Under the pieces are notes generated by a model. That model was not told where the DNA came from. It did not search any database and saw only the letters and a program-made list of their open reading frames with translations. From positions 26,580 to 90,579 of IMG/VR virus record IMGVR_UViG_3300038673_000493: a stretch of 64,000 nucleotides of DNA; one strand, 5' to 3'. This DNA comes from a virus (taxonomy: Duplodnaviria > Caudoviricetes). Of the stretch, positions 8,798 to 64,000 are shown in pieces; the stretch's first letter is position 1; every line of letters starts with the position of its first letter. Made by a program: the position numbers and the translations under genes.

Positions 8798-9849
8798 AAG
8801 CTAAAGATCGTAGAGAATTGTACAAAAAGGAAATGGGGCAACGGCATAAAGAAAATTATGCTAATGTGGATGACAGTGGACGATTTCGTGATTTTTTTGA
8901 GCCTACTAAAAAGTCAAGTGTTTCTTTTTGGAAATGCAAAGAAGATGATCATGAAATTTACATTGTTCCTTACATTGTCGGGGAACAGCATCCTAAACTG
9001 AAAGAAGGCAAAGTTGATTTTCTTTTAGATGTATTTGTTCACACAAAAGTCGGAATCAATGAGGATAGCTTTGTATGTCTTAACAGAACGTATCGGGAAA
9101 AATGTCCTATTTGTGAACATCAAGCCGCTTTGAAAGAAAGTGGAGAAGCTGATGATGATGAAATCAAAGCATTGAATCCTACACGCCGAAACATCTTTAA
9201 TATTGTTTGTCTTGATTCTTCAAAAGATCAGGAGAAAGGTGTTCAAGTTTGGAATGTTTCTCAATGGCTGTTCACAAAACCTCTTGAAGAACTCGCACAT
9301 AAGAAAAGAGGTGGTGGGGAAATTGCTTATGCTGATATTGACGAAGGAAAAGTCATTTCTTTCAGAAAGAAAGGTTCAGGAATGACAAACACAGAATATA
9401 CGGCATTTGAATTTAAAGATCGTGATGAAATTCCTGATGAAATTTTGGATGCTGCTGTATGTCTTGATGAACTGATTCATAAACCAACTTACGAAGAAGT
9501 TTCTGAAGCCTTCTTTCAGTTGAAAAAAGAATCAGCACCTGATGAGCCTGATGAGCCTGATGAGCCAGAAGAACCAGAAGAAAAACCTAAACCCAAAGCA
9601 GTACCAAAACCTCTTGCAAAGAAAGCTCTTGTGAAAAAAGCACCAGAGCCCGAAGAGCCTGAAGAATCAGATGTTCCCGATTCTTCTGATTTAGAATGTC
9701 CTGGTGGAGCTGATTTCGGCAAAGATTATAACGAGTATGAAGAATGCCGTACTTGTGAAGTCCGAGAAGAATGTGCCGAAGAAAAAGAAAAACTTCAAAA
9801 ATCTGCTCCTGCTCCTGCTAAAAAACCCTTAACAAGAAGGAGCAGTTAA
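8794..9849 (+). CDS. single-stranded DNA-binding protein (gp32-like) with acidic/Pro-rich linker and C-terminal Cys cluster
   Basis: CPICE zinc site, GVQVW, acidic tail; upstream of RecA; GGAGG RBS before ATG 8794. Confidence 0.75.
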   Translation: MKAKDRRELYKKEMGQRHKENYANVDDSGRFRDFFEPTKKSSVSFWKCKEDDHEIYIVPYIVGEQHPKLKEGKVDFLLDVFVHTKVGINEDSFVCLNRTYREKCPICEHQAALKESGEADDDEIKALNPTRRNIFNIVCLDSSKDQEKGVQVWNVSQWLFTKPLEELAHKKRGGGEIAYADIDEGKVISFRKKGSGMTNTEYTAFEFKDRDEIPDEILDAAVCLDELIHKPTYEEVSEAFFQLKKESAPDEPDEPDEPEEPEEKPKPKAVPKPLAKKALVKKAPEPEEPEESDVPDSSDLECPGGADFGKDYNEYEECRTCEVREECAEEKEKLQKSAPAPAKKPLTRRSS

Positions 9850-54334: not shown

Positions 54335-56320
54335 TTATGTGTAACTGGCTAGATTTTTCTCTAAAATCATGGTTCCAAAGTAAGATTTCTTATGTCTTTC
54401 TTTAAAATCCGTAACATTTAGCTCTCTTCCACCATAAATACACCATGCAACCGCAAACATACTATCATCTTGAATACCATGTTTTTCAGTTTTTTCAGGA
54501 GAACCAAACCATCTTTTATCAGAATCATGGAAAAAGACACTAGCCTCTTCTCTAAACAAATCAAGTTCTTTAGTTCCAGCAACTCCTAAAGGGGGACACT
54601 TGAAACGACCATCAGAAGCTAAAATATACAATTCGCTGAATGCTCCACGTTGTTTTTCATACACAGGAAAAACTGTTTCAAAGGGAATATCATTTTCTTC
54701 ACACCAAGGAACTAAATCCCAGATACCCCACCGCTCTCCACATAGCTTATCAATGCCACCAAACTCTCTATGACATTCAAGAATGATTTCTTTTAATGTT
54801 TCCAAACTATGATCTTCCACATTAACAAAATCTAACATGAAATAAATATAGTTCGGAACAGTATTCCCTTCAGAAAGCATAAATGGACGAGAAGCACTTC
54901 CAGGCAATCCTTTTGCAATGCAGGTGAAGATTGTTCTGGCACCACGATTTGTTGCTTTTAAAGGATCTGCTCTATCGATGGCTCCTAGAACAGCCCAATT
55001 TGTATCAAACAGTTTCCCGAGCTTTTCAAGAGTCTCTAAATTAGTTCTTTTAGGTAATCCATTAGAATCTCGCAAAGAATAATAATTTTCCAAAGGCATT
55101 AATCTATCATTAATATCCCTAATTGTTGCTCTGTCTTTCTCAAGCAACGAATCCATGACACCAAATTTTACAAAGGATTTTATTCCTTCTTCAGCTTTCA
55201 TCTTGATTTCCAAAGCATCCATCAACACACTATTATTTCCTAAAGCTCTGTCAATTCCGATATAACTCATTGCTTCGAGCATTTCTGAAGTAAAAATCCT
55301 TTGAGATGAAGAACTCCACACATTCAAGAAGTATCGTTCAAAATCACCTAATGGAAATTTAGCACGATAATCATTTAATTGTGCTTGAGACATGTTGGGA
55401 TTCCAATAATCTTCGGCATTCCCTTCTTTGCTGAATCGATAATCAAAATAAATCGTTTTGCTTGTTCTGTCCATATAACTTTCAAACAGCTTATAAAGAA
55501 TATGAGACTTTGCAGAAACGGTGGAGTCAATAACGCCTATAGCATTCGGAATATTACGAATAGAACCATCAAGCTGAACAAAGAATTTCGGATTCTTCAT
55601 GTCAAAGATTTCTGAAAACGTATATCCGGTAATATTTGAAACAATACCACTAAATGATGAAATTGCACGAATGACAGAAACATCGTTTCCTCTGTCATCG
55701 GTGATTCTGATCTTCTTTTCCAATATATTTTTCTTGCCAACAGATGCTAAAAGATTCGGGCTGTTCAGAATAATATCCCGCATAATATCAAAATGAACAA
55801 AAGTTACTTGGTCTTTAGAATTAGCGCCAAGAACGATTTGCTGGCGAGACCAGTTAAAGAATTTCCACAATTGAATCAAGCAGACAAACAAAGACTTGCC
55901 TTCACCACGCGGCCAACACAAAACAACCAACCGATAAAGAAATTTGCCATCAACCATTCTTAATCCGTTTCTAGCAACTTCTTTTTGTTGTTCCCACAGA
56001 TATTTATAAGATCGTCCTGTTTCTGGATTAATTGTGTCAGGCAATTCTCCGATAGAACACCAAACAGCCATCGTAGAACCGAAAGGATAAATCGGAATAA
56101 AGACATTATCCTCGCACCATTTGATAAATCCCTCAGGTCCATCTGTATAAGATTCAGGTTCATAGATTTGATAAGGCGGCAATGAATCAGGATCCACTGC
56201 TTGAACAAGATTTTCTTTGAATAAGTCTTGGATTGTTTTCTTTTCTTCGGCTTTCTGTTTCGCTTTCAACTTTCGTTTCAGGATTTGCTTGGCTTTCTTG
56301 ATGATCGGTTTCGGTTTCAT
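54335..56320 (-). CDS. terL: terminase large subunit
   Basis: WPRGEGKS Walker A, FSEIFD Walker B, AIDRAD and QDDSMFA nuclease acids. Confidence 0.88.
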   Translation of the reverse strand: MKPKPIIKKAKQILKRKLKAKQKAEEKKTIQDLFKENLVQAVDPDSLPPYQIYEPESYTDGPEGFIKWCEDNVFIPIYPFGSTMAVWCSIGELPDTINPETGRSYKYLWEQQKEVARNGLRMVDGKFLYRLVVLCWPRGEGKSLFVCLIQLWKFFNWSRQQIVLGANSKDQVTFVHFDIMRDIILNSPNLLASVGKKNILEKKIRITDDRGNDVSVIRAISSFSGIVSNITGYTFSEIFDMKNPKFFVQLDGSIRNIPNAIGVIDSTVSAKSHILYKLFESYMDRTSKTIYFDYRFSKEGNAEDYWNPNMSQAQLNDYRAKFPLGDFERYFLNVWSSSSQRIFTSEMLEAMSYIGIDRALGNNSVLMDALEIKMKAEEGIKSFVKFGVMDSLLEKDRATIRDINDRLMPLENYYSLRDSNGLPKRTNLETLEKLGKLFDTNWAVLGAIDRADPLKATNRGARTIFTCIAKGLPGSASRPFMLSEGNTVPNYIYFMLDFVNVEDHSLETLKEIILECHREFGGIDKLCGERWGIWDLVPWCEENDIPFETVFPVYEKQRGAFSELYILASDGRFKCPPLGVAGTKELDLFREEASVFFHDSDKRWFGSPEKTEKHGIQDDSMFAVAWCIYGGRELNVTDFKERHKKSYFGTMILEKNLASYT

Positions 56321-57291: not shown

Positions 57292-57621
57292 TTACTGATT
57301 CAAGAGCATATTGCGTGATATAACTCTTGATTTCTCGTCATGATTAATATGACGTTTAATTCGCTTGTATGCACTAGTTACATCATTGCATAGCTTCATT
57401 GCAACAAGCTTATCAGCTATATCATTGACTTTGTACTTTAAGCGTATACATGCATCGATGCAGCTTGCTTGTGTATGTACATTGTTGAATACTGATTCAT
57501 TGAGCTTTGTCAATTTTACATTGTCTTTACAGTCTGTAATGATGCGTTTACGAATTACGTTTACATTGATGCGTTTCACTTCAATCTTCGCTTCTTTTTT
57601 GTTTTCGTTGTTAGTAGTCAT
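57292..57621 (-). CDS. basic helical (HTH-like) early protein lacking Gly, Pro and Trp
   Basis: 109 aa with its own promoter and terminator; similar to the C-terminal domain of 61258..61890. Confidence 0.75.
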   Translation of the reverse strand: MTTNNENKKEAKIEVKRINVNVIRKRIITDCKDNVKLTKLNESVFNNVHTQASCIDACIRLKYKVNDIADKLVAMKLCNDVTSAYKRIKRHINHDEKSRVISRNMLLNQ

Positions 57622-57696
57622 TGTTTTTCTCTTTTCTCTTTTTATAGTCTTTAGTGACTTGCTTAATTGTTAGTTAGTTAGTTTACTTAATTAACG

Positions 57697-57732
57697 ATGC
57701 AAGCTTAACTAAAAGAACAAAGAAGCTTGCAT
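57697..57732 (-). other. inverted repeat in the 5' UTR
   Basis: ATGCAAGCTT - 16 nt - AAGCTTGCAT. Confidence 0.6.
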
Positions 57733-57804
57733 ATACGCTTAACAGAATCATTGTTTTTGTCATTATCTTTGTTTCACTTTCATTTTTATTTTAACTTCGA
57801 TTAA

Positions 57805-57833
57805 AATCTAGCAAATCTTTTATACTTTGTCAA
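57805..57833 (-). promoter_or_regulatory. strong sigma70 promoter (leftward)
   Basis: TTGACA-17 nt-TAGATT with TGn extension and an upstream A-tract UP-like element. Confidence 0.85.
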
Positions 57834-58426
57834 GTGTTTTTTTATATTTTTTTTATATTTTTTATCACTTTTAATTATTTAATATTATTAATGTTTTTAC
57901 CTAACTATTGATTATTACTGTCTTTTTGTCTTTTAAGCAAGAGACAGCGCCGACGGCTGGATTGTTATCGCCATTACCTGGTAATGGTTCCATTCCGCCT
58001 ACCTAATATTTTCCGAAGGCACCTTCGACAATTCCGCTGACTTCTATACATCACTACTGTATATGATGCTTTATTTCGCGGTAGAATGTGGTATCCCATA
58101 ATCTTTGTTCATAAACAATAAATCATATTAATTGATCTTAAATAATGGCAAACGGCGTTTAAACAAGAAATCCTGGTTTTAAAAATAAAATAGGAAAATT
58201 GAATCGGAAAAGGGTTTCCTTCGGAAGGAAAGTTTTATTTAGAAAAAAGTTTCCTTTTCCAGGAACTTTATTGCCAGGAAAGAAAGTAATTTGAGTCCGT
58301 CCCGAGGATCGGAAATAAAGCCGAACCCAAAGCGGATAGAAAAGCCGGTCCAACGGATGGATTCAATATAGATAGAACCGCGGATTGGTTATTCGGAAAG
58401 GGCGGATCCGGGTGGAGAGGCGGTAC

Positions 58427-58484
58427 CTTTTCCCTTTCTTTCCTCTCCTATTTTCCTTTTCCCTTTCTTTCCTCTCCTATTTTC
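58427..58484. repeat. 29-bp pyrimidine-rich tandem duplication
   Basis: CTTTTCCCTTTCTTTCCTCTCCTATTTTC x2. Confidence 0.85.
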
Positions 58485-59026
58485 CTTTCCCGTTTCCTTT
58501 TAAATCACCATTTCCGCTTATACAAGAATTTCCTTTTTATAAACCCAACCAACCTACCATTCCTACCTACCTACCTTCCTTTTAAAAACATTTAAACAAT
58601 CAATTCCTTTTTAACAAGACTTTTATCTTTGATTCCTTTTTAAACAAAACTTCTTTTTTCTTTTGAAACCGATTCCTTTTATTAACTCCTTTTTATACAA
58701 TCATTCTTACATTGTTTATAGTTTTTACTTCCTTCCTTTTTCTTCTTTTATTATTGGTTTTATTATTGTTTTTGTTTCCTTTAATGGTTTTAATTTGTTT
58801 TCCTTTTATCTTCGATTTTTTGTTTCCATTGTCGATTGATTTATCCTTGGATATTATTTACCTTTGTCTTTAATTATTTGGATATTATTTATTTTCTTTT
58901 TGGATTATTTTTCGTCAGAAATTTGTGAGAAATCCTTGTGGGAAATTCTTATTTTCGGAAATTCTTTTCCTCGAACCGTTGTGGAACTGTTTATTTTGCT
59001 TCAAAAACATTTTTTTGTCTTTTTTC

Positions 59027-59055
59027 TTGACAAAACTATATGGTTTCTTTATACT
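59027..59055 (+). promoter_or_regulatory. strong sigma70 promoter (rightward, early operon)
   Basis: TTGACA-17 nt-TATACT with T-tract upstream. Confidence 0.88.
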
Positions 59056-59061
59056 TTGCTT

Positions 59062-59623
59062 GACAATTGAATAGTAGTTGATAGCTGACGAGATTACAAC
59101 ATAGTCAGAGAGATTGAACCAGAAAGCATTGCTTTCGCATCGAAGTATGATGTTAACCGCACTTTCACATAACGATTCTTTAATGATGCGAATCATGATC
59201 GAATCCGCTAGAAAAAAATGCTGTTGACCACAAGACTACAGAGCGTGGTTTAAAAACGATTAGATCAGCGAACAGTTATTTTTGACGAAAAAAGCGAAAG
59301 TCCTAGTGAACTTCTCTTGAGCTGACTGGTTAGACAATATGCTATCTGGGAACAATCACTTTGCAGACATGATGAAAAGACTCGTTTCGGGTATAGTCAG
59401 AAAATATTTGATTATTATGTCATGAGCAAACATATTTGGGTAAGAACGTCACGAAAATCTGTTCGGCAAAATCAGTAGACGGATCGCACTAGGCACTCTC
59501 TTTCTTTTCTCCTTCAGATCGTTGTCCGTGCATTATTGACAATGATCTGTTTGACGGGCAAGAAGAAATTCTTGCCCGTCTTGTTTGAATGCTCAAACAG
59601 AAATGGTTGAGCATTGAAACAAG
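59062..59623 (+). ncRNA. candidate large structured RNA / long leader
   Basis: No + strand ORF of 60 aa or more for about 590 nt after the promoter; strong hairpins at 59515-59549, 59553-59580 (GAAA loop) and 59580-59623. Confidence 0.5.
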
Positions 59624-59649
59624 TCTAACTTGAAAGGAGAAAGAAAGAT

Positions 59650-60147
59650 ATGGAGCAAGCTAAAGACAAAAAAGCTTATTACGGTTACATCTTGATGGAG
59701 CGATTTGGCAGTCAACGAGTACGTCATTTCCGAAAATCAACTGCACGTCGGTTAAGCGTAGCTGAAGCTCGAATCCACGATTTGATAAGAAATGGTCGTT
59801 GGACAAACGAAAGAATCTTTGAAATCTGGGATGGAATCAATCCAAAATTGATTATCACATGCAGAAAAAACGAAAATGGAAATATCGTGATTACCAAAAA
59901 AGACTACTTTAAAGAGTATGTTGGTTTCATTGAGACACGAAAAGGAAAAATTTTCGTGAATGATGTAGTTGGTCGTGACAGAGACTATTTTTTGGCAACA
60001 AAGAATAGACGAAATATCACGATCGGAGCAAGAGCGGGTGATTTGACTTCTTTTGTCAAAAAAGAAGCAATGGACAAAGTTCTTTGTCAAAAAGTATCTG
60101 CTCGGGGTTACAAAGTATCAGAAAAAGTCACAAAACGGGAGTTCTGA
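59650..60147 (+). CDS. early hypothetical protein
   Basis: AAAGGAGAAAG RBS. Confidence 0.75.
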   Translation: MEQAKDKKAYYGYILMERFGSQRVRHFRKSTARRLSVAEARIHDLIRNGRWTNERIFEIWDGINPKLIITCRKNENGNIVITKKDYFKEYVGFIETRKGKIFVNDVVGRDRDYFLATKNRRNITIGARAGDLTSFVKKEAMDKVLCQKVSARGYKVSEKVTKREF

Positions 60148-60153
60148 AAAGAA

Positions 60154-60221
60154 TGCAGAGAGACAACGATGGTCAAAGATCATCGTTGGTAATGCACAGT
60201 TTCGGTCTCAAGTCCGAAATA
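60154..60221 (+). ncRNA. twister ribozyme 1 (permuted, P5-type); predicted cut 60190/60191
   Basis: GCA-GA-GAG, P1 hairpin, U|AA-UGC-AC, P4 UUUCGG/CCGAAA with loop UCUCAAGU. Confidence 0.85.
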
Positions 60222-60243
60222 CTAACTTAAAAGGAGAAAGAAA

Positions 60244-60615
60244 ATGAAAGAGAAAAAGAATCCTCGGGAAGAAATCGTTGTGGTCTTTTCTGATGAAATG
60301 CCGGATGAGGACATTCAATTATTGGCAGAAGATGTTGAAGAAACGAGCTTCATGATTTTGGAAGTTTTCGACAACGGAAACAAAGTGATTGCTGATATTC
60401 CTTCAGAAATCCCCGATCCAGACTTCAAAGGAACTCTTGAAGAATATTGGATGGATGTTCTGAATGAAACAAAATGTCCATGCTGTCATCCGATTGAAGA
60501 ATCACAAATTGCTGTTTGGGCAGTTTATCGTTTGAAAGATTTCATCAAAAAGGATAAGAAATTGAATCCCAAGATAGGCGGAGCTTACAGAGACATTTGG
60601 GAAAAGTATCTGTAG
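60244..60615 (+). CDS. early acidic hypothetical protein
   Basis: Conserved RBS; CPCCH. Confidence 0.75.
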   Translation: MKEKKNPREEIVVVFSDEMPDEDIQLLAEDVEETSFMILEVFDNGNKVIADIPSEIPDPDFKGTLEEYWMDVLNETKCPCCHPIEESQIAVWAVYRLKDFIKKDKKLNPKIGGAYRDIWEKYL

Positions 60616-60618
60616 CAT

Positions 60619-60684
60619 TGCAGAGAGGACGGAGTCAGAAATGACTTCGTTTAATGCACACTTCTGGTCTCAAGTCCAGAAAAT
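60619..60684 (+). ncRNA. twister ribozyme 2; predicted cut 60652/60653
   Basis: T2 GAG/CUC; P4 UUCUGG/CCAGAA. Confidence 0.85.
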
Positions 60685-60710
60685 AGAGAGAGAAAGAAAG
60701 GAGTAGGAAA

Positions 60711-60884
60711 ATGATTTCGGAAAAGTTTTTGCTGAAATGCTATGCGGAAACGGGGAATCGTAAATTCTTGCAGAGAGCCAAAGCAATTGCAAAATCAGAA
60801 AGGTATGCAAAAGACAAACGATTCCGAGAAATTGAAACAACAAATCGTGATGTATTCCCTTCCCTAGCTGAATGTCAAAGATAG
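60711..60884 (+). CDS. early small protein (57 aa)
   Basis: AAGGAG RBS; fills the space between ribozymes 2 and 3. Confidence 0.65.
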   Translation: MISEKFLLKCYAETGNRKFLQRAKAIAKSERYAKDKRFREIETTNRDVFPSLAECQR

Positions 60885-60886
60885 CT

Positions 60887-60953
60887 TGCAGAGGGCATGA
60901 AGTCATAAATGGCTTCATGTAATGCACAATCTCCGTCCCAAGTCGGAGAAATA
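60887..60953 (+). ncRNA. twister ribozyme 3; predicted cut 60920/60921
   Basis: T2 GGG/CCC; P4 UCUCCG/CGGAGA. Confidence 0.85.
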
Positions 60954-60978
60954 AAAATTGAAAAGGAGAAAAAAAGAA

Positions 60979-61161
60979 ATGGGAGAAAACAATTACAGCG
61001 TGGAAGTAAAAGGTAAGGAAATGATCATTCGGATAGACCTGTCACAAAATTTGGGCAGAAGTCAGTCAGGAAAAAACATTCTTGTTGCTTCTTCCAAGGG
61101 CAATCAGTTCATTGAAAAAGCCGGAGTAACACTCGGTCTCAATGTTTACAAGAAAGCCTAA
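60979..61161 (+). CDS. early small beta-rich protein (60 aa)
   Basis: IDLSQNLGRSQSGKNILVASSKGN...LGLNVY. Confidence 0.75.
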   Translation: MGENNYSVEVKGKEMIIRIDLSQNLGRSQSGKNILVASSKGNQFIEKAGVTLGLNVYKKA

Positions 61162-61163
61162 AT

Positions 61164-61230
61164 TGCAGAAGGGTCGGAGTCAGAAATGGCTCCGATTAAT
61201 GCGCCTATCAGGTCCTAAGCCCTGATAAAA
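61164..61230 (+). ncRNA. twister ribozyme 4; predicted cut 61197/61198
   Basis: Both pseudoknots covary: T2 AGG/CCU, T1 GC/GC; loop UCCUAAGC. Confidence 0.88.
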
Positions 61231-61257
61231 TCAAACGCATTAAAAGGAGAAAGAAAG

Positions 61258-61890
61258 ATGAAAAAGAATGAGAAAAACCTGGCAAAGACGACAAAGAAGG
61301 CTGATGCAAAAGCGGATGCAAAAGCGAAAATCACCTTGACGCCGAAAGCAAATGTGGCACCGGTAGCAGAGTCAAAAGGACCAGACCGTCCTGAAATGCC
61401 TGCTAATTTCTGTCTCACGAAAAAAGAGTGGGATTCGGATGCTACAGGTTTCGATGCCACAAGCAATCAGTGCAAAGCTTGCGGGAAAGATTTTCCTGAT
61501 ACTTGCAAAGTTTGCAAAACCCGTGCAGAGTTTCTGGCTTCTAAAGCGAAGGAAGCAAAAGTCAGAAAAGCTGGTGGTCTCCGCAAGACAAGTTCTACTT
61601 CCGGTATTCCCCCGCAGACAAAGATCATTGATGACGGTCTGCTGGCAAAACTGCCGAAGTCAGAAATTGTCACGAATCTAGCAATGGCTCACTATGGTGG
61701 CAATGGAGAAGCAAATATTGCTCTTGCAACAAAACGGTTTGATCGGCATCTGAAGTCGATCAAAGACGGTTCTTATGTCAGAGCGGCAACGGTCGTCAAT
61801 TGCATTGCTTATCTGTCGGCAAAAGCTGTTAAAGCAGAGCAGGCACCGGCAAAAGCATCGGCAAAGGTTACTTCTTCTAAAAAGAAGTAG
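61258..61890 (+). CDS. early basic protein: Cys cluster + HTH-like domain, Lys/Ala-rich ends
   Basis: C..CKAC..CKVC; QTKIID...EI...L...ATKRFDRHL. Confidence 0.8.
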   Translation: MKKNEKNLAKTTKKADAKADAKAKITLTPKANVAPVAESKGPDRPEMPANFCLTKKEWDSDATGFDATSNQCKACGKDFPDTCKVCKTRAEFLASKAKEAKVRKAGGLRKTSSTSGIPPQTKIIDDGLLAKLPKSEIVTNLAMAHYGGNGEANIALATKRFDRHLKSIKDGSYVRAATVVNCIAYLSAKAVKAEQAPAKASAKVTSSKKK

Positions 61891-61902
61891 CGAATGATTC
61901 AT

Positions 61903-61976
61903 TGCAGAGGGACAAGGGGTCAGAAATTCTTCTGGCTCCTTGGTAATGCACAATTTCAGTCCCAAGTCTGAAAATA
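61903..61976 (+). ncRNA. twister ribozyme 5; predicted cut 61944/61945
   Basis: 12-bp P1 with wobbles; P4 UUUCAG/CUGAAA. Confidence 0.85.
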
Positions 61977-61999
61977 AACGAGAAAAGGAGAAGGGAGTT

Positions 62000-62110
62000 A
62001 TGAAAAGGAAAGACATAAGAATCATAAGAAAAGCAATTGAATGGGCTTTGAGAGCATTAGTTATTGGCATTCTTGTGGGAATCGTTTATATGATTGTAAC
62101 AATCCCGTAA
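62000..62110 (+). CDS. early small membrane protein (36 aa)
   Basis: MKRKDIRIIRKAIEWALRALVIGILVGIVYMIVTIP*. Confidence 0.65.
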   Translation: MKRKDIRIIRKAIEWALRALVIGILVGIVYMIVTIP

Positions 62111-62111
62111 T

Positions 62112-62173
62112 TGCAGAGGGAGCGGAGTCAAAAACTCCGCTTAATGCACAATCACCGTCCCAAGTCGGTGAAG
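62112..62173 (+). ncRNA. twister ribozyme 6; predicted cut 62142/62143
   Basis: P1 GCGGAGU/ACUCCGC; P4 UCACCG/CGGUGA. Confidence 0.85.
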
Positions 62174-62190
62174 AAAGGAGAAAGAAAGAA

Positions 62191-62496
62191 ATGAACTACC
62201 AAGAAGTGAGGAAAAAAGCGAAAGAGTTCAAAGAAGTATCCAAAGAATTGGATGATCGTTTAATAAAAATTGCCAATATGACATGGCAAACAATTGCTGG
62301 AGATGTTTTTGATTGTATCGGCAAAGATACAATGAAAAGATCCGAAGTTATTGAATGCGTAGGGGATGCGGACTACATGTTCACACATGGAAACGATCCT
62401 GAAGCTTATGCTTATTTTCTTTACCTGTTCCATAACAATGAAAAACATCTTCAGAAAGTTATGAAACAGGCTTTTCCGTATGCAAAATATTGTTAG
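62191..62496 (+). CDS. early hypothetical protein (101 aa)
   Basis: Conserved RBS before ATG 62191. Confidence 0.75.
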   Translation: MNYQEVRKKAKEFKEVSKELDDRLIKIANMTWQTIAGDVFDCIGKDTMKRSEVIECVGDADYMFTHGNDPEAYAYFLYLFHNNEKHLQKVMKQAFPYAKYC

Positions 62497-62557
62497 CAGA
62501 GGGGGCGGAGCTTCTGCTCCGTCTAATGCACACTTGCCGTCCCAAGTCGGCAAAATA
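62496..62557 (+). ncRNA. twister ribozyme 7; predicted cut 62524/62525
   Basis: P1 GGCGGAGC/GCUCCGUC; P4 UUGCCG/CGGCAA; starts at the G of the UAG stop. Confidence 0.85.
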
Positions 62558-62582
62558 GAGAGAGAAAGAAAGGAGAAAGAAA

Positions 62583-62759
62583 ATGCCAACAGAACAATTA
62601 TTGCTGCCGAAAGAAGATCCTAAAGAAGTCTTTTTTTACAAACATGGAGATATTGCTGTTATGAATCCAGCAACTCCGGGAGTTCCTGTTCGAGCTTTCT
62701 TCATTACAAGAAATGATCTAAATGGGTTATGGGGCATATTTATTGGACAAACAAGATAG
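62583..62759 (+). CDS. early small protein (58 aa)
   Basis: Conserved RBS; MPTEQLLLPKEDPKEVFFYKHG...GQTR*. Confidence 0.65.
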   Translation: MPTEQLLLPKEDPKEVFFYKHGDIAVMNPATPGVPVRAFFITRNDLNGLWGIFIGQTR

Positions 62760-62821
62760 CAGAGGGGACGGAGCTAAAAACTCCGTCTAATGCACAATCA
62801 CCGTCCCAAGTCGGTGAAATA
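62759..62821 (+). ncRNA. twister ribozyme 8; predicted cut 62788/62789
   Basis: P1 GACGGAG/CUCCGUC; P4 UCACCG/CGGUGA. Confidence 0.85.
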
Positions 62822-62844
62822 AAAGAGAAAAGGAGAAAAAGAAA

Positions 62845-63159
62845 ATGAGCAAGCGACAGGAAGAAATTCAGGAAGCCCTTCGGTTAGAGGCAGAAAAAAA
62901 ATTGGCGATAGAGCTGGTTGAAAAACTGGCTAATTATGTGAACATAATGGGCAGAGATTATGCTCCATTTATCGAAAGACTTATTTACGGAACCCATCGA
63001 ACATTGCAACAATCTGTTTTTGGACTGTTTTTACAATGCATTAAAGGTTTTGCTGAATTACCAGAAAGATATACTGATCCTCGTAATGAAGCAACCGTTG
63101 AAGTTTGTAAGAAAATCATGGAAGCAGTGGAAGGCAGAACGAGACTTCCTTTGATTTAG
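62845..63159 (+). CDS. early hypothetical protein
   Basis: HRTLQQ...RNEA motifs; conserved RBS. Confidence 0.75.
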   Translation: MSKRQEEIQEALRLEAEKKLAIELVEKLANYVNIMGRDYAPFIERLIYGTHRTLQQSVFGLFLQCIKGFAELPERYTDPRNEATVEVCKKIMEAVEGRTRLPLI

Positions 63160-63174
63160 CGTTCAGAAAAATTT

Positions 63175-63236
63175 TGCAGAGAGGTCGGAGCAATAGCTCC
63201 GATTAATGCACAATCCCAGTCTCAAGTCTGGGAAAT
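63175..63236 (+). ncRNA. twister ribozyme 9; predicted cut 63204/63205
   Basis: T2 GAG/CUC; P1 UCGGAGC/GCUCCGA; P4 UCCCAG/CUGGGA. Confidence 0.85.
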
Positions 63237-63326: not shown

Positions 63327-64000
63327 ATGAAAAAAGAATATTATGTTTACATTTACTTGGATACAAGTAAACCAGGTAAATATGTTTATGGAGAATACAA
63401 ATTTTTACATGAGCCTATTTATGTGGGAAAAGGTAAACGCAAAAGAGCCTATTATTATGAAAAAAGAAACAAATACCTTAAAAATAAAATAAAAAAAATA
63501 GGAAAACCCATTATTTTAATAATAACAAAGGATTTGGAAGAATCAAAAGCATTTGAATTAGAAAAATTTTTAATTGCTTTAATAGGTAGAAAAGATTTAG
63601 GAAAAGGACCATTATGTAATTTTACGGATGGTGGAGAAGGACCGAGTGGAAACATTCGATCCAAAGAAACAAGAAAGAAAATGTCCATTGCTAAAAAAGG
63701 AAGAATTGTTTCCGAAGAAACAAGAAAAAAATTATCCGATATTAATAAAGGCAAAGTAATGCCTGAATCGGTTAAAGAAAAAATAAAAAATACTTTAATG
63801 GGAACACACAGATCGGAAAAAACAAAATTGAAAATTTCTTTAGGTCATAGAACTTCAATGCTTGATAAATCTAAATCACAAACAACCCGAGATAAAATGA
63901 GAAAAGCAAATTTAGGTAAAACATTATCACAAACAACCCGAGATAAAATGAGAAAAGCAAATTTAGGTAAAACATTATCACAAACAACCCGAGATAAAAT
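63327..64000 (+). mobile_element. GIY-YIG homing endonuclease with NUMOD3 repeats (partial, runs off the window)
   Basis: YVYIYLD...PIYVGKG...E...NFTDGGEG, then (R/V)SxETRKK(M/L)S repeats. Confidence 0.88.
63876..64000 (+). repeat. exact 51-bp tandem repeat (17-aa NUMOD3 unit), about 2.5 copies
   Basis: Units start at 63876, 63927 and 63978. Confidence 0.9.

Follow-up and report, generated by a model that had tools for sequence, protein, structure and literature searches.

The 64,000-nucleotide (nt) window analysed here comprises bases 26580-90579 of the 90,579-base-pair (bp) virus record IMGVR_UViG_3300038673_000493 (IMG/VR), which has terminal repeats, with an exact 55-bp repeat at its ends. 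The leader RNA on the + strand at positions 59062-59649 of the window was found to be a conserved, structured non-coding RNA standing at the head of an early operon punctuated by ribozymes. This RNA represents a previously undescribed family of about 450-530 nt, whose structured core ends in a polypyrimidine block complementary to the unusual all-purine ribosome-binding sites (RBSs) of the early genes. The leader is tentatively, and on sequence evidence plausibly, read as an attenuator-type and anti-RBS riboregulator of the ribozyme-cut early operon. Positions below are those of the window unless genome coordinates or alignment columns are named.

The preliminary description of this region had proposed a consensus-like promoter, followed by a structured RNA that opens the early operon and is without any + strand open reading frame (ORF) of at least 60 amino acids before the ATG at 59650. 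The promoter was present as the top-scoring site in 57500-60500, with TTGACA at 59027-59032, a 17-nt spacer and TATACT at 59050-59055, and the RNA start was predicted at about 59062. From the promoter to ATG 59650 the + strand held no ORF of at least 60 amino acids; its longest was a 37-amino-acid TTG frame at 59114-59227. The complementarity of CTGAC and GTCAG, also pointed out earlier, was located at 59085-59089 with 59104-59108. The minimum free energy (MFE) of the 588-nt leader was -170.6 kcal/mol compared to -135.7 ± 5.3 kcal/mol in dinucleotide shuffles (z = -6.5), whereas the opposite strand folded less well (z = -4.25). This fold, together with about 20 conserved homologues and their covarying helices, supported the proposal of an ORF-free structured RNA.

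A blastn search with 58900-59700 showed no similar sequences in deposited phage genomes. Homologues were collected from loci reached via the terminase and the first early gene, from exact-pattern scans with two invariant blocks and from contigs encoding relatives of the first gene. About 20 distinct leader sequences in about 14 clusters were obtained, all at the equivalent position in related uncultivated phages of about 90 kilobases. In every one of them the promoter was followed by 415-540 nt lacking any conserved ORF and then by the block ACUCUCUUUCUUUUCUCC and a hairpin, after which came a second, GC-rich hairpin, in most cases with a U-rich tract behind it, and the first ORF. The block was identical in all homologues, save for its last letter in two, and the rest of the leader had diverged to about 50% identity. 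Comparison of stop-to-stop frames showed no reading frame shared across subgroups; frames of the same leader pairs were alike in several frames and on both strands simultaneously, which indicates conservation at the nucleotide level and not of coding. Viral contigs searched via the first-gene family gave the same set of homologues and nothing further, and representative bacterial and archaeal genomes contained 40 exact matches to the block and no leader homologue. The strong GGAG-type RBSs and the TTGACA/TATAAT-type promoter suggest that the host is a Firmicute.

The architecture of the core was derived from RNAalifold on the better-aligned subgroup and from two-strand cofolds of all sequences, and the features are listed in Table 1. 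The long arm formed by 59302-59325 with 59472-59493 was irregular and contained a conserved internal loop with GAAC opposite GAUNGC (GAUCGC in the window). Covariation was counted in a MAFFT alignment of 11 sequences (A3) over 34 pairs in seven helices. A total of 85.4% of the cells were paired compared to 62.7 ± 1.8% in shuffles, and 28 of the 34 pairs were altered on both sides, including pairs 180 nt apart. The covariation score was 0.497 against 0.186, a value that none of 500 shuffles equalled, and only 33-47% of cells were paired when the partners were slid by 1-3 columns. The count is conservative, since the window's helix Ha was misregistered by one column by MAFFT. In the relatives, Ha was replaced by CCUUGAG/CUCGAGG, CUUUAGG/CCUAAAG, CCUAGAG/CUCUAGG, CCCGAAG/CUUCGGG, CCGAAAG/CUUUCGG and CCAGAU/AUCUGG. 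An alignment-free comparison of cognate with non-cognate strands across clusters gave the same picture for Ha, Pi and Po, as the cognate value was matched in 0 of 5000 permutations. Because the strands of Hb-Hd are themselves conserved in sequence, the same comparison did not reach significance for them (as good a value in 1268 of 5000 permutations); these helices are supported by RNAalifold, the cofolds and the A3 count.

Table 1. Features of the leader RNA and its ends, with their positions in the window
Feature	Position	Strand	Basis or remark
Early promoter TTGACA-17-TATACT	59027-59055	+	11/12 consensus positions; same place in all homologues
Whole non-coding leader RNA	59062-59649	+	Structured core to 59514, then three-hairpin end and first-gene RBS
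P1, 5'-proximal hairpin CUGAC/GUCAG	59085-59108	+	Inspection; relatives have a 7-bp hairpin of other sequence, e.g. GAUCUGAG/UUAGAUC
Conserved purine motif GAGAGAUUGAACC (family pattern RAGA-NN-UAACC)	59109-59121	+	Alignments; RNAalifold helix 84-89/672-677
Block B2 CGCACUUUCACAUAAC (family consensus RUGUUCUUUGACAUAG), boxA-like	59158-59173	+	Conservation; between two variable hairpins
Outer helix Po	59221-25 with 59271-75	+	Covariation, 5/5 pairs changed on both sides
Inner hairpin Pi, conserved loop AAGACUACAGAGC	59226-31 with 59245-50	+	Covariation, 5/6 pairs changed on both sides
Block A UAAAAACGAUUAGAUCAGCG	59251-59270	+	Nearly invariant 20-nt bulge between Pi and Po
Helix Ha CCUAGUG/CACUAGG	59302-08 with 59487-93	+	RNAalifold, cofolds, covariation, strand-swap test
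Helix Hb UUCUCU/AGA-C-GGA	59312-17 with 59477-83	+	RNAalifold, cofolds, covariation
Helix Hc GCUGA/UCAGU	59321-25 with 59472-76	+	RNAalifold, cofolds, covariation
Polypyrimidine block ACUCUCUUUCUUUUCUCC (anti-RBS)	59495-59512	+	18 nt, G-free; complement AAGGAGAAAAGAAAGAGAG
HP1, 12-bp hairpin	59515-59526 with 59538-59549	+	Directly 3' of the pyrimidine block; stem sequence differs between subgroups
HP2, GC-rich 12 bp, GAAA loop, then U-rich UUGUUUGAAU	59553-59564 with 59569-59580, tract to 59590	+	Terminator-like by terminator scan
HP3	59581-59622	+	U-rich tract paired with AAACAA 59617-59622
All-purine RBS GAAAGGAGAAAGAAAGA and ATG of the first early gene	59632-59652	+	Predicted cis partner of the block; duplex -18 kcal/mol

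MAFFT with RNAalifold on the entire leader or on the 5' domain produced little or no structure because large indels break the alignment, and the 5' domain (P1-P4) was drawn by inspection. It contains P1, the GAGA..AACC motif, two variable hairpins and block B2; an RNAalifold helix was placed at the P1 position (alignment columns 25-32/76-83). The purine motif is a putative partner for the 5' half of the pyrimidine block; as the block side is invariant, this pairing offers no covariation.

The covariation also bears on whether the conservation resides in DNA, as a replication origin, packaging site or protein-binding control region, or in small peptides, with the RNA folds being incidental. The 1.4 kilobases immediately upstream (57622-59020) are poor in ORFs and full of iteron-type tandem repeats, polypurine-polypyrimidine tracts can be DNA signals, and a 93-amino-acid ORF is present on the minus strand at 58915-59196. 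Against this, the compensatory double changes described above, some of them between distant positions, indicate selection for a single-stranded fold, and the + strand folds better than the minus strand. In addition, no frame was conserved across subgroups and the minus-strand ORF had no PHROG or Pfam match. An explanation by DNA-level conservation or peptides is thus highly improbable, and the origin reading was rejected on the compensatory changes in A3.

The three consecutive hairpins reported earlier at the 3' end of the leader were all present (HP1-HP3, within 59515-59622). HP1 and HP2 formed in all 16 homologues folded, from unrelated sequences and with a mean z of -7. The GC-rich equivalent of HP2 carried a U-rich tail in most of these 16 homologues and a matching upstream A-tract in several, and HP2 is predicted to be a terminator-like attenuator by its GC-rich stem, its U-rich tract and its conserved position. 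It had also been suggested that sequestration of the U-tract by the next hairpin could make termination conditional. The pairing itself was predicted and recurred in the group-1 relatives L139, L008, L010 and L005, with differing sequences in the last three, while the U-rich tract of the other homologues had no such downstream partner. An intrinsic terminator acts while its U-tract is still in the RNA-DNA hybrid. Conditional termination through HP3 is therefore doubtful, because the partner at 59617-59622 is transcribed after the terminator has acted. Regarding HP1, its loops were kept within subgroups and its stems were altered by compensatory substitutions: L041 and L267 shared UGAAAUUG, L101, L186, L124 and L268 shared UUGUUGUUUGG, and the window, L008 and L010 shared GUGCAUU. 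Retention of the loop while the stem compensates suggests that the loop is recognised by a protein or by some other segment of the RNA.

The leader lies within an ORF-poor divergent region of 2 kilobases between the structural genes on the minus strand, which include the large terminase at 54335-56320, and a long + strand operon that begins at ATG 59650 and continues past the record end into the record start. Rfam search of the window identified nine Twister-P5 ribozymes (RF02684, 44-54 bits) in 60154-63231, where every gap between the early genes holds a single copy. No self-cleaving ribozyme, twister or other, was found inside the leader with the Rfam ribozyme covariance models, even at an expected value (E) of up to 10 in 59062-59649. 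Equal Twister-P5 arrays were observed in relatives (L258, L259, L269, L270 and others).

The early class was defined as the first approximately 28 ORFs of the + strand operon taken by an ORF picker based on the Shine-Dalgarno (SD) sequence, and these are exactly the ribozyme-separated stretch (genome coordinates 86229 to 9332). The early genes have an unusual all-purine RBS, AAAGGAGAAAGARAGA-AUG, in the forms GGAGRAAAGAGAG, e.g. GAAAGGAGAAAGAGAGAUAUG, to which the pyrimidine block is complementary. Two RBS classes were seen on the + strand as a whole: the approximately 28 early genes were purine-only (GGAGAAAGARAGA) and the middle genes, at 9815 to 43100, had ordinary sites, the switch coinciding with the end of the ribozyme array (genome G000). 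Purines made up 86% of positions -20 to -1 in early genes, 67% in middle genes and 65% in late genes, and the mean duplex energy with the block was -14.3, -8.7 and -8.0 kcal/mol, respectively. Equal behaviour was shown by 73 early RBSs from twelve related loci. The longest exact match of an early RBS to the block averaged 8.5 nt compared to 7.3 nt with the flanks shuffled, and 0 of 300 shuffles equalled the observed value. In the MFE structure of the window, 59497-59514 was paired with the first RBS at 59632-59649, enclosing HP1-HP3, and this clamp of the block on the first RBS was predicted in most homologues folded.

The leader, the twisters and the purine RBSs travel together. All three were found in the window, L008, L016, L025 and L034, and eight more distant relatives by large terminase subunit (TerL) had no leader and no twister matches. 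In the three of these whose RBSs were checked, L038, L040 and L076, with a terminase identity of 53-59%, the equivalent place was occupied by a divergent early operon with ordinary RBSs such as AGGAGGUAAGAU. The association of the block appeared to be with the operon and not with one gene, since the first-gene RBS of most relatives fitted the block less well (-9 to -12 kcal/mol) than did the early RBSs further along (-18 to -22 kcal/mol), and since in L008-type phages the leader is followed by a different ORF and the conserved first-gene family appears only in third place. In L259 (same contig as L005), a 51-amino-acid ORF and a twister were observed at 2420-2476 between the leader terminator and the first-gene homologue, so that the leader is separable from the first gene by a ribozyme.

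In the proposed riboregulator, a host sigma-70-type RNA polymerase would start at about 59062 and first make the structured core of about 455 nt, consisting of the 5' domain with its boxA-like block, the Po/Pi module with the 20-nt bulge, the long arm closed by Ha and the terminal pyrimidine block. A fraction of the transcripts would stop at HP2 and leave a stable transcript of about 530 nt in which the block lies exposed just before the 3' hairpins, and the remaining transcripts would read through into the twister-cut operon. The block would clamp the first RBS in cis across HP1-HP3 and may pair with the other early all-purine RBSs, in the uncut precursor or in trans, because each early messenger RNA (mRNA) liberated by a ribozyme carries the same RBS. 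Cutting by the ribozymes would turn the operon into separate hairpin-capped mRNAs that are no longer controllable as one transcript, and the common RBS 'address' would restore joint control. One RNA could thus set or shut translation of the entire early set, as a functional RNA counterpart of T4 RegA/RegB, and the large folded core may control when the block is exposed or serve as the binding site of a factor.

Several observations weigh against this proposal. The complementarity is largely compositional, a pyrimidine run facing a purine run: the real block beat only about 92% of C/U-shuffled blocks, with 23 of 300 and 26 of 300 shuffled blocks being as good. The 3' end of the block, UUCUCCUU, is able to pair with any AAGGAGAA-type SD, and the middle genes also exceeded their own shuffles in the exact-match test. 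Predictions of how accessible the block is in the terminated RNA did not agree between homologues. The leader shares its promoter with its targets and would always be at least equimolar with them, hence a simple 'late shut-off' needs an additional unmasking step. No C-to-U change was seen in the block, though G-U wobble would tolerate such changes; the constraint is therefore stronger than that of simple pairing and may lie elsewhere (protein, RNA polymerase or ribosome), and the absolute invariance hints at an extra partner. Finally, the co-occurrence of leader, twisters and purine RBSs was observed in a single clade and counts as one evolutionary event.

An invariance of this kind would be accounted for by the binding of conserved host machinery, as in a site for processive antitermination like nut, rrn or put. 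Block B2 would then recruit NusB/S10 and other Nus factors or act on the polymerase directly, and this is unlikely. Equally unlikely is the accompanying proposal that the pyrimidine block and HP1 perhaps form a second boxA-boxB-like pair and that the polymerase reads through HP2 and resists Rho along the ribozyme-cut operon, which is long and in part untranslated. B2 is among the few conserved single-stranded blocks of the leader and its family consensus is boxA-like. The boxA consensus is UGCUCUUUAACA in E. coli and AUGAUCUUUGAAA in B. subtilis (PMC13753749). The L266 sequence AUGUUCUUUGACA was identical to the B. subtilis consensus at 11 of 13 positions and the window sequence CGCACUUUCACA to that of E. 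coli at 9 of 12, while L009 has CGCUCUU. The pattern is, however, short and U-rich, and with three mismatches allowed it occurred 417 times in the AT-rich window against 384 expected, so the window's own match is without weight and the likeness of B2 to boxA serves as a lead. The order of promoter, conserved RNA, terminator and genes is that of lambda nutL-tL1 and HK022 putL, the leader like lambda nut, rrn boxA (NusB-S10) and HK022 put being situated between the early promoter and the first terminator. A variable hairpin directly follows both B2 and the pyrimidine block, and a 590-nt untranslated leader and the free 5' ends made by ribozymes would be natural Rho targets. Nevertheless, the known antitermination RNAs are nowhere near 450 nt, the present leader being five to ten times larger, and rrn-type complexes counter mainly Rho and not intrinsic terminators. 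An N-like protein cannot be made before HP2, and there is no N-type gene upstream of the terminator. The first-gene family shows no fold that can be recognised, and other ORFs may precede it. Nothing in the nut, rrn and put systems resembles the anti-RBS block, and its mirroring of the early RBSs would be left unexplained.

Comparison with known RNA families showed no Rfam match in the leader at the gathering score in a search of the whole window, nor at E up to 10 in 58300-60300. Nine homologous leaders likewise had no match at the gathering score or at E up to 1, the downstream twisters being the only matches in those loci. Three short strings, CAGAGCGTGG, AGTCCTAG and AGACTCG, had been taken in the preliminary description as reminiscent of ROOL, with GOLLD also named as an RNA of this size range. 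All three strings occur in the sequence, the first two lying in elements that are conserved or covary (the Pi hairpin and the 5' strand of Ha), but they do not denote ROOL: neither ROOL (RF03087) nor GOLLD (RF01998) gave a covariance-model match in the window or the homologous leaders, even at permissive thresholds, and both were rejected. The likeness to these RNAs lies in the size of several hundred nt, the occurrence in phages, the absence of coding capacity and the large number of conserved helices and loops. ROOL and GOLLD stand alone as genes, frequently next to tRNA genes, whereas the present leader is promoter-proximal, fused to an operon and ends in an anti-RBS block and a terminator.

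A free-standing large 'ornate' RNA unrelated to operon control, comparable to ROOL, GOLLD or phi29 pRNA, would nonetheless be suited by the extent of the structure. Block A, the Pi loop, the GAAC/GAUNGC loop and the long-range covarying helices, spread over about 455-530 nt, exceed the needs of a simple attenuator, and a terminator-like hairpin follows the core. Such an RNA might serve as a scaffold or multimeric particle, as a decoy or sponge that ties up a host factor or a defence system, or as an assembly cofactor, and its first place would ensure immediate synthesis after infection; the first product of an early promoter would suit an anti-defence role. These jobs, and the free-standing RNA itself, are judged improbable. 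The leader matched no Rfam family, was always fused to the operon and was not followed by a promoter after HP2, so the early genes depend on read-through of the leader RNA. That it occurs together with twisters and purine RBSs is a further argument for a link to the operon.

The riboregulator reading finds partial parallels in several other systems. Staphylococcus aureus RNAIII, of about 514 nt, is a Firmicutes regulatory RNA with pyrimidine-rich anti-SD seeds, as are RsaE/RoxS. Like these, the leader is a long multi-hairpin RNA with C/U-rich single-stranded segments that would pair with the SD regions of many mRNAs, and the seed near the terminal hairpins is the best-conserved part. A conserved pyrimidine seed complementary to target RBSs was present as in anti-SD RNAs, and its complementarity was order-dependent yet largely compositional. 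Unlike RNAIII and RoxS, the seed is one linear 18-nt block and not a set of loop motifs, it would target the uniform early RBSs of the phage itself, and the RNA is the leader of the target operon; no homology in sequence or structure is expected. In phage T4, the translational repressor RegA and the nuclease RegB, which cuts GGAG in early RBSs, shut down the early class. The parallel is that one factor recognises the RBSs of many early mRNAs, but the T4 factors are proteins and the putative factor here is an RNA that pairs with the sites. The present RNA resembles attenuator and riboswitch leaders in being structured, in having a terminator hairpin and in carrying an anti-SD able to occlude the first RBS. 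It differs in that the core of about 455 nt is far above known aptamers, no ligand class is suggested, and the anti-SD fits the downstream RBSs better than the first-gene RBS in most relatives.

The first early gene (59650-60147) encodes a 165-amino-acid protein of an orphan family with 30 metagenome relatives and showed no Pfam or PHROG matches. Its AlphaFold model was mostly beta with a predicted local distance difference test (pLDDT) score of 73, and Foldseek gave no matches at E up to 0.001. Structural scores were weak, with a top VIA-align Z of 6.4 and a Z of 5.5 for the anti-CRISPR AcrIF9, which are below a meaningful level. Further within the early operon, an ORF running off the window end (63327-63998) had a hit to phrog_314 at E 1e-19 and a NUMOD3 motif, and looks like a homing endonuclease gene. 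On the other side of the leader, the approximately 1.4 kilobases at 57622-59020 between the divergent late and early promoters had no convincing ORF and were dense in tandem repeats. For example, a 29-nt unit, CCTTTTCCCTTTCTTTCCTCTCCTATTTT, was present in 2.4 copies at 58426-58496 and is itself a pyrimidine tract resembling the leader block; further tandem repeats were located at 58847-58910 and 58769-58827, and GGAAA/TTTCC motifs were abundant. This segment was kept in the closest relative only (L004, 92% identity) and is a candidate origin or control region bound by protein.

What self-cleaving ribozymes do for bacteria and phages has long been an open question. In the present case, a ribozyme-punctuated operon is joined by a uniform all-purine RBS and by a large covarying leader that ends in the counterpart of that RBS. 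The invariant block of the leader and its association with a twister operon provide a promising handle on the question and a concrete testable model. The further-reaching view, that the leader represents a new class of large phage RNA acting as master regulator of a ribozyme-processed operon, with an 18-nt anti-address against a purine-only RBS address by which it would switch translation of all the stable single-gene mRNAs that twisters cut from the early transcript, is rather unlikely at present, but if true it would give bacterial and phage twisters a defined place in the gene-expression programme. Whatever the mechanism, an undescribed family of about 450-530 nt with strong covariation joins the short list of large structured phage RNAs.

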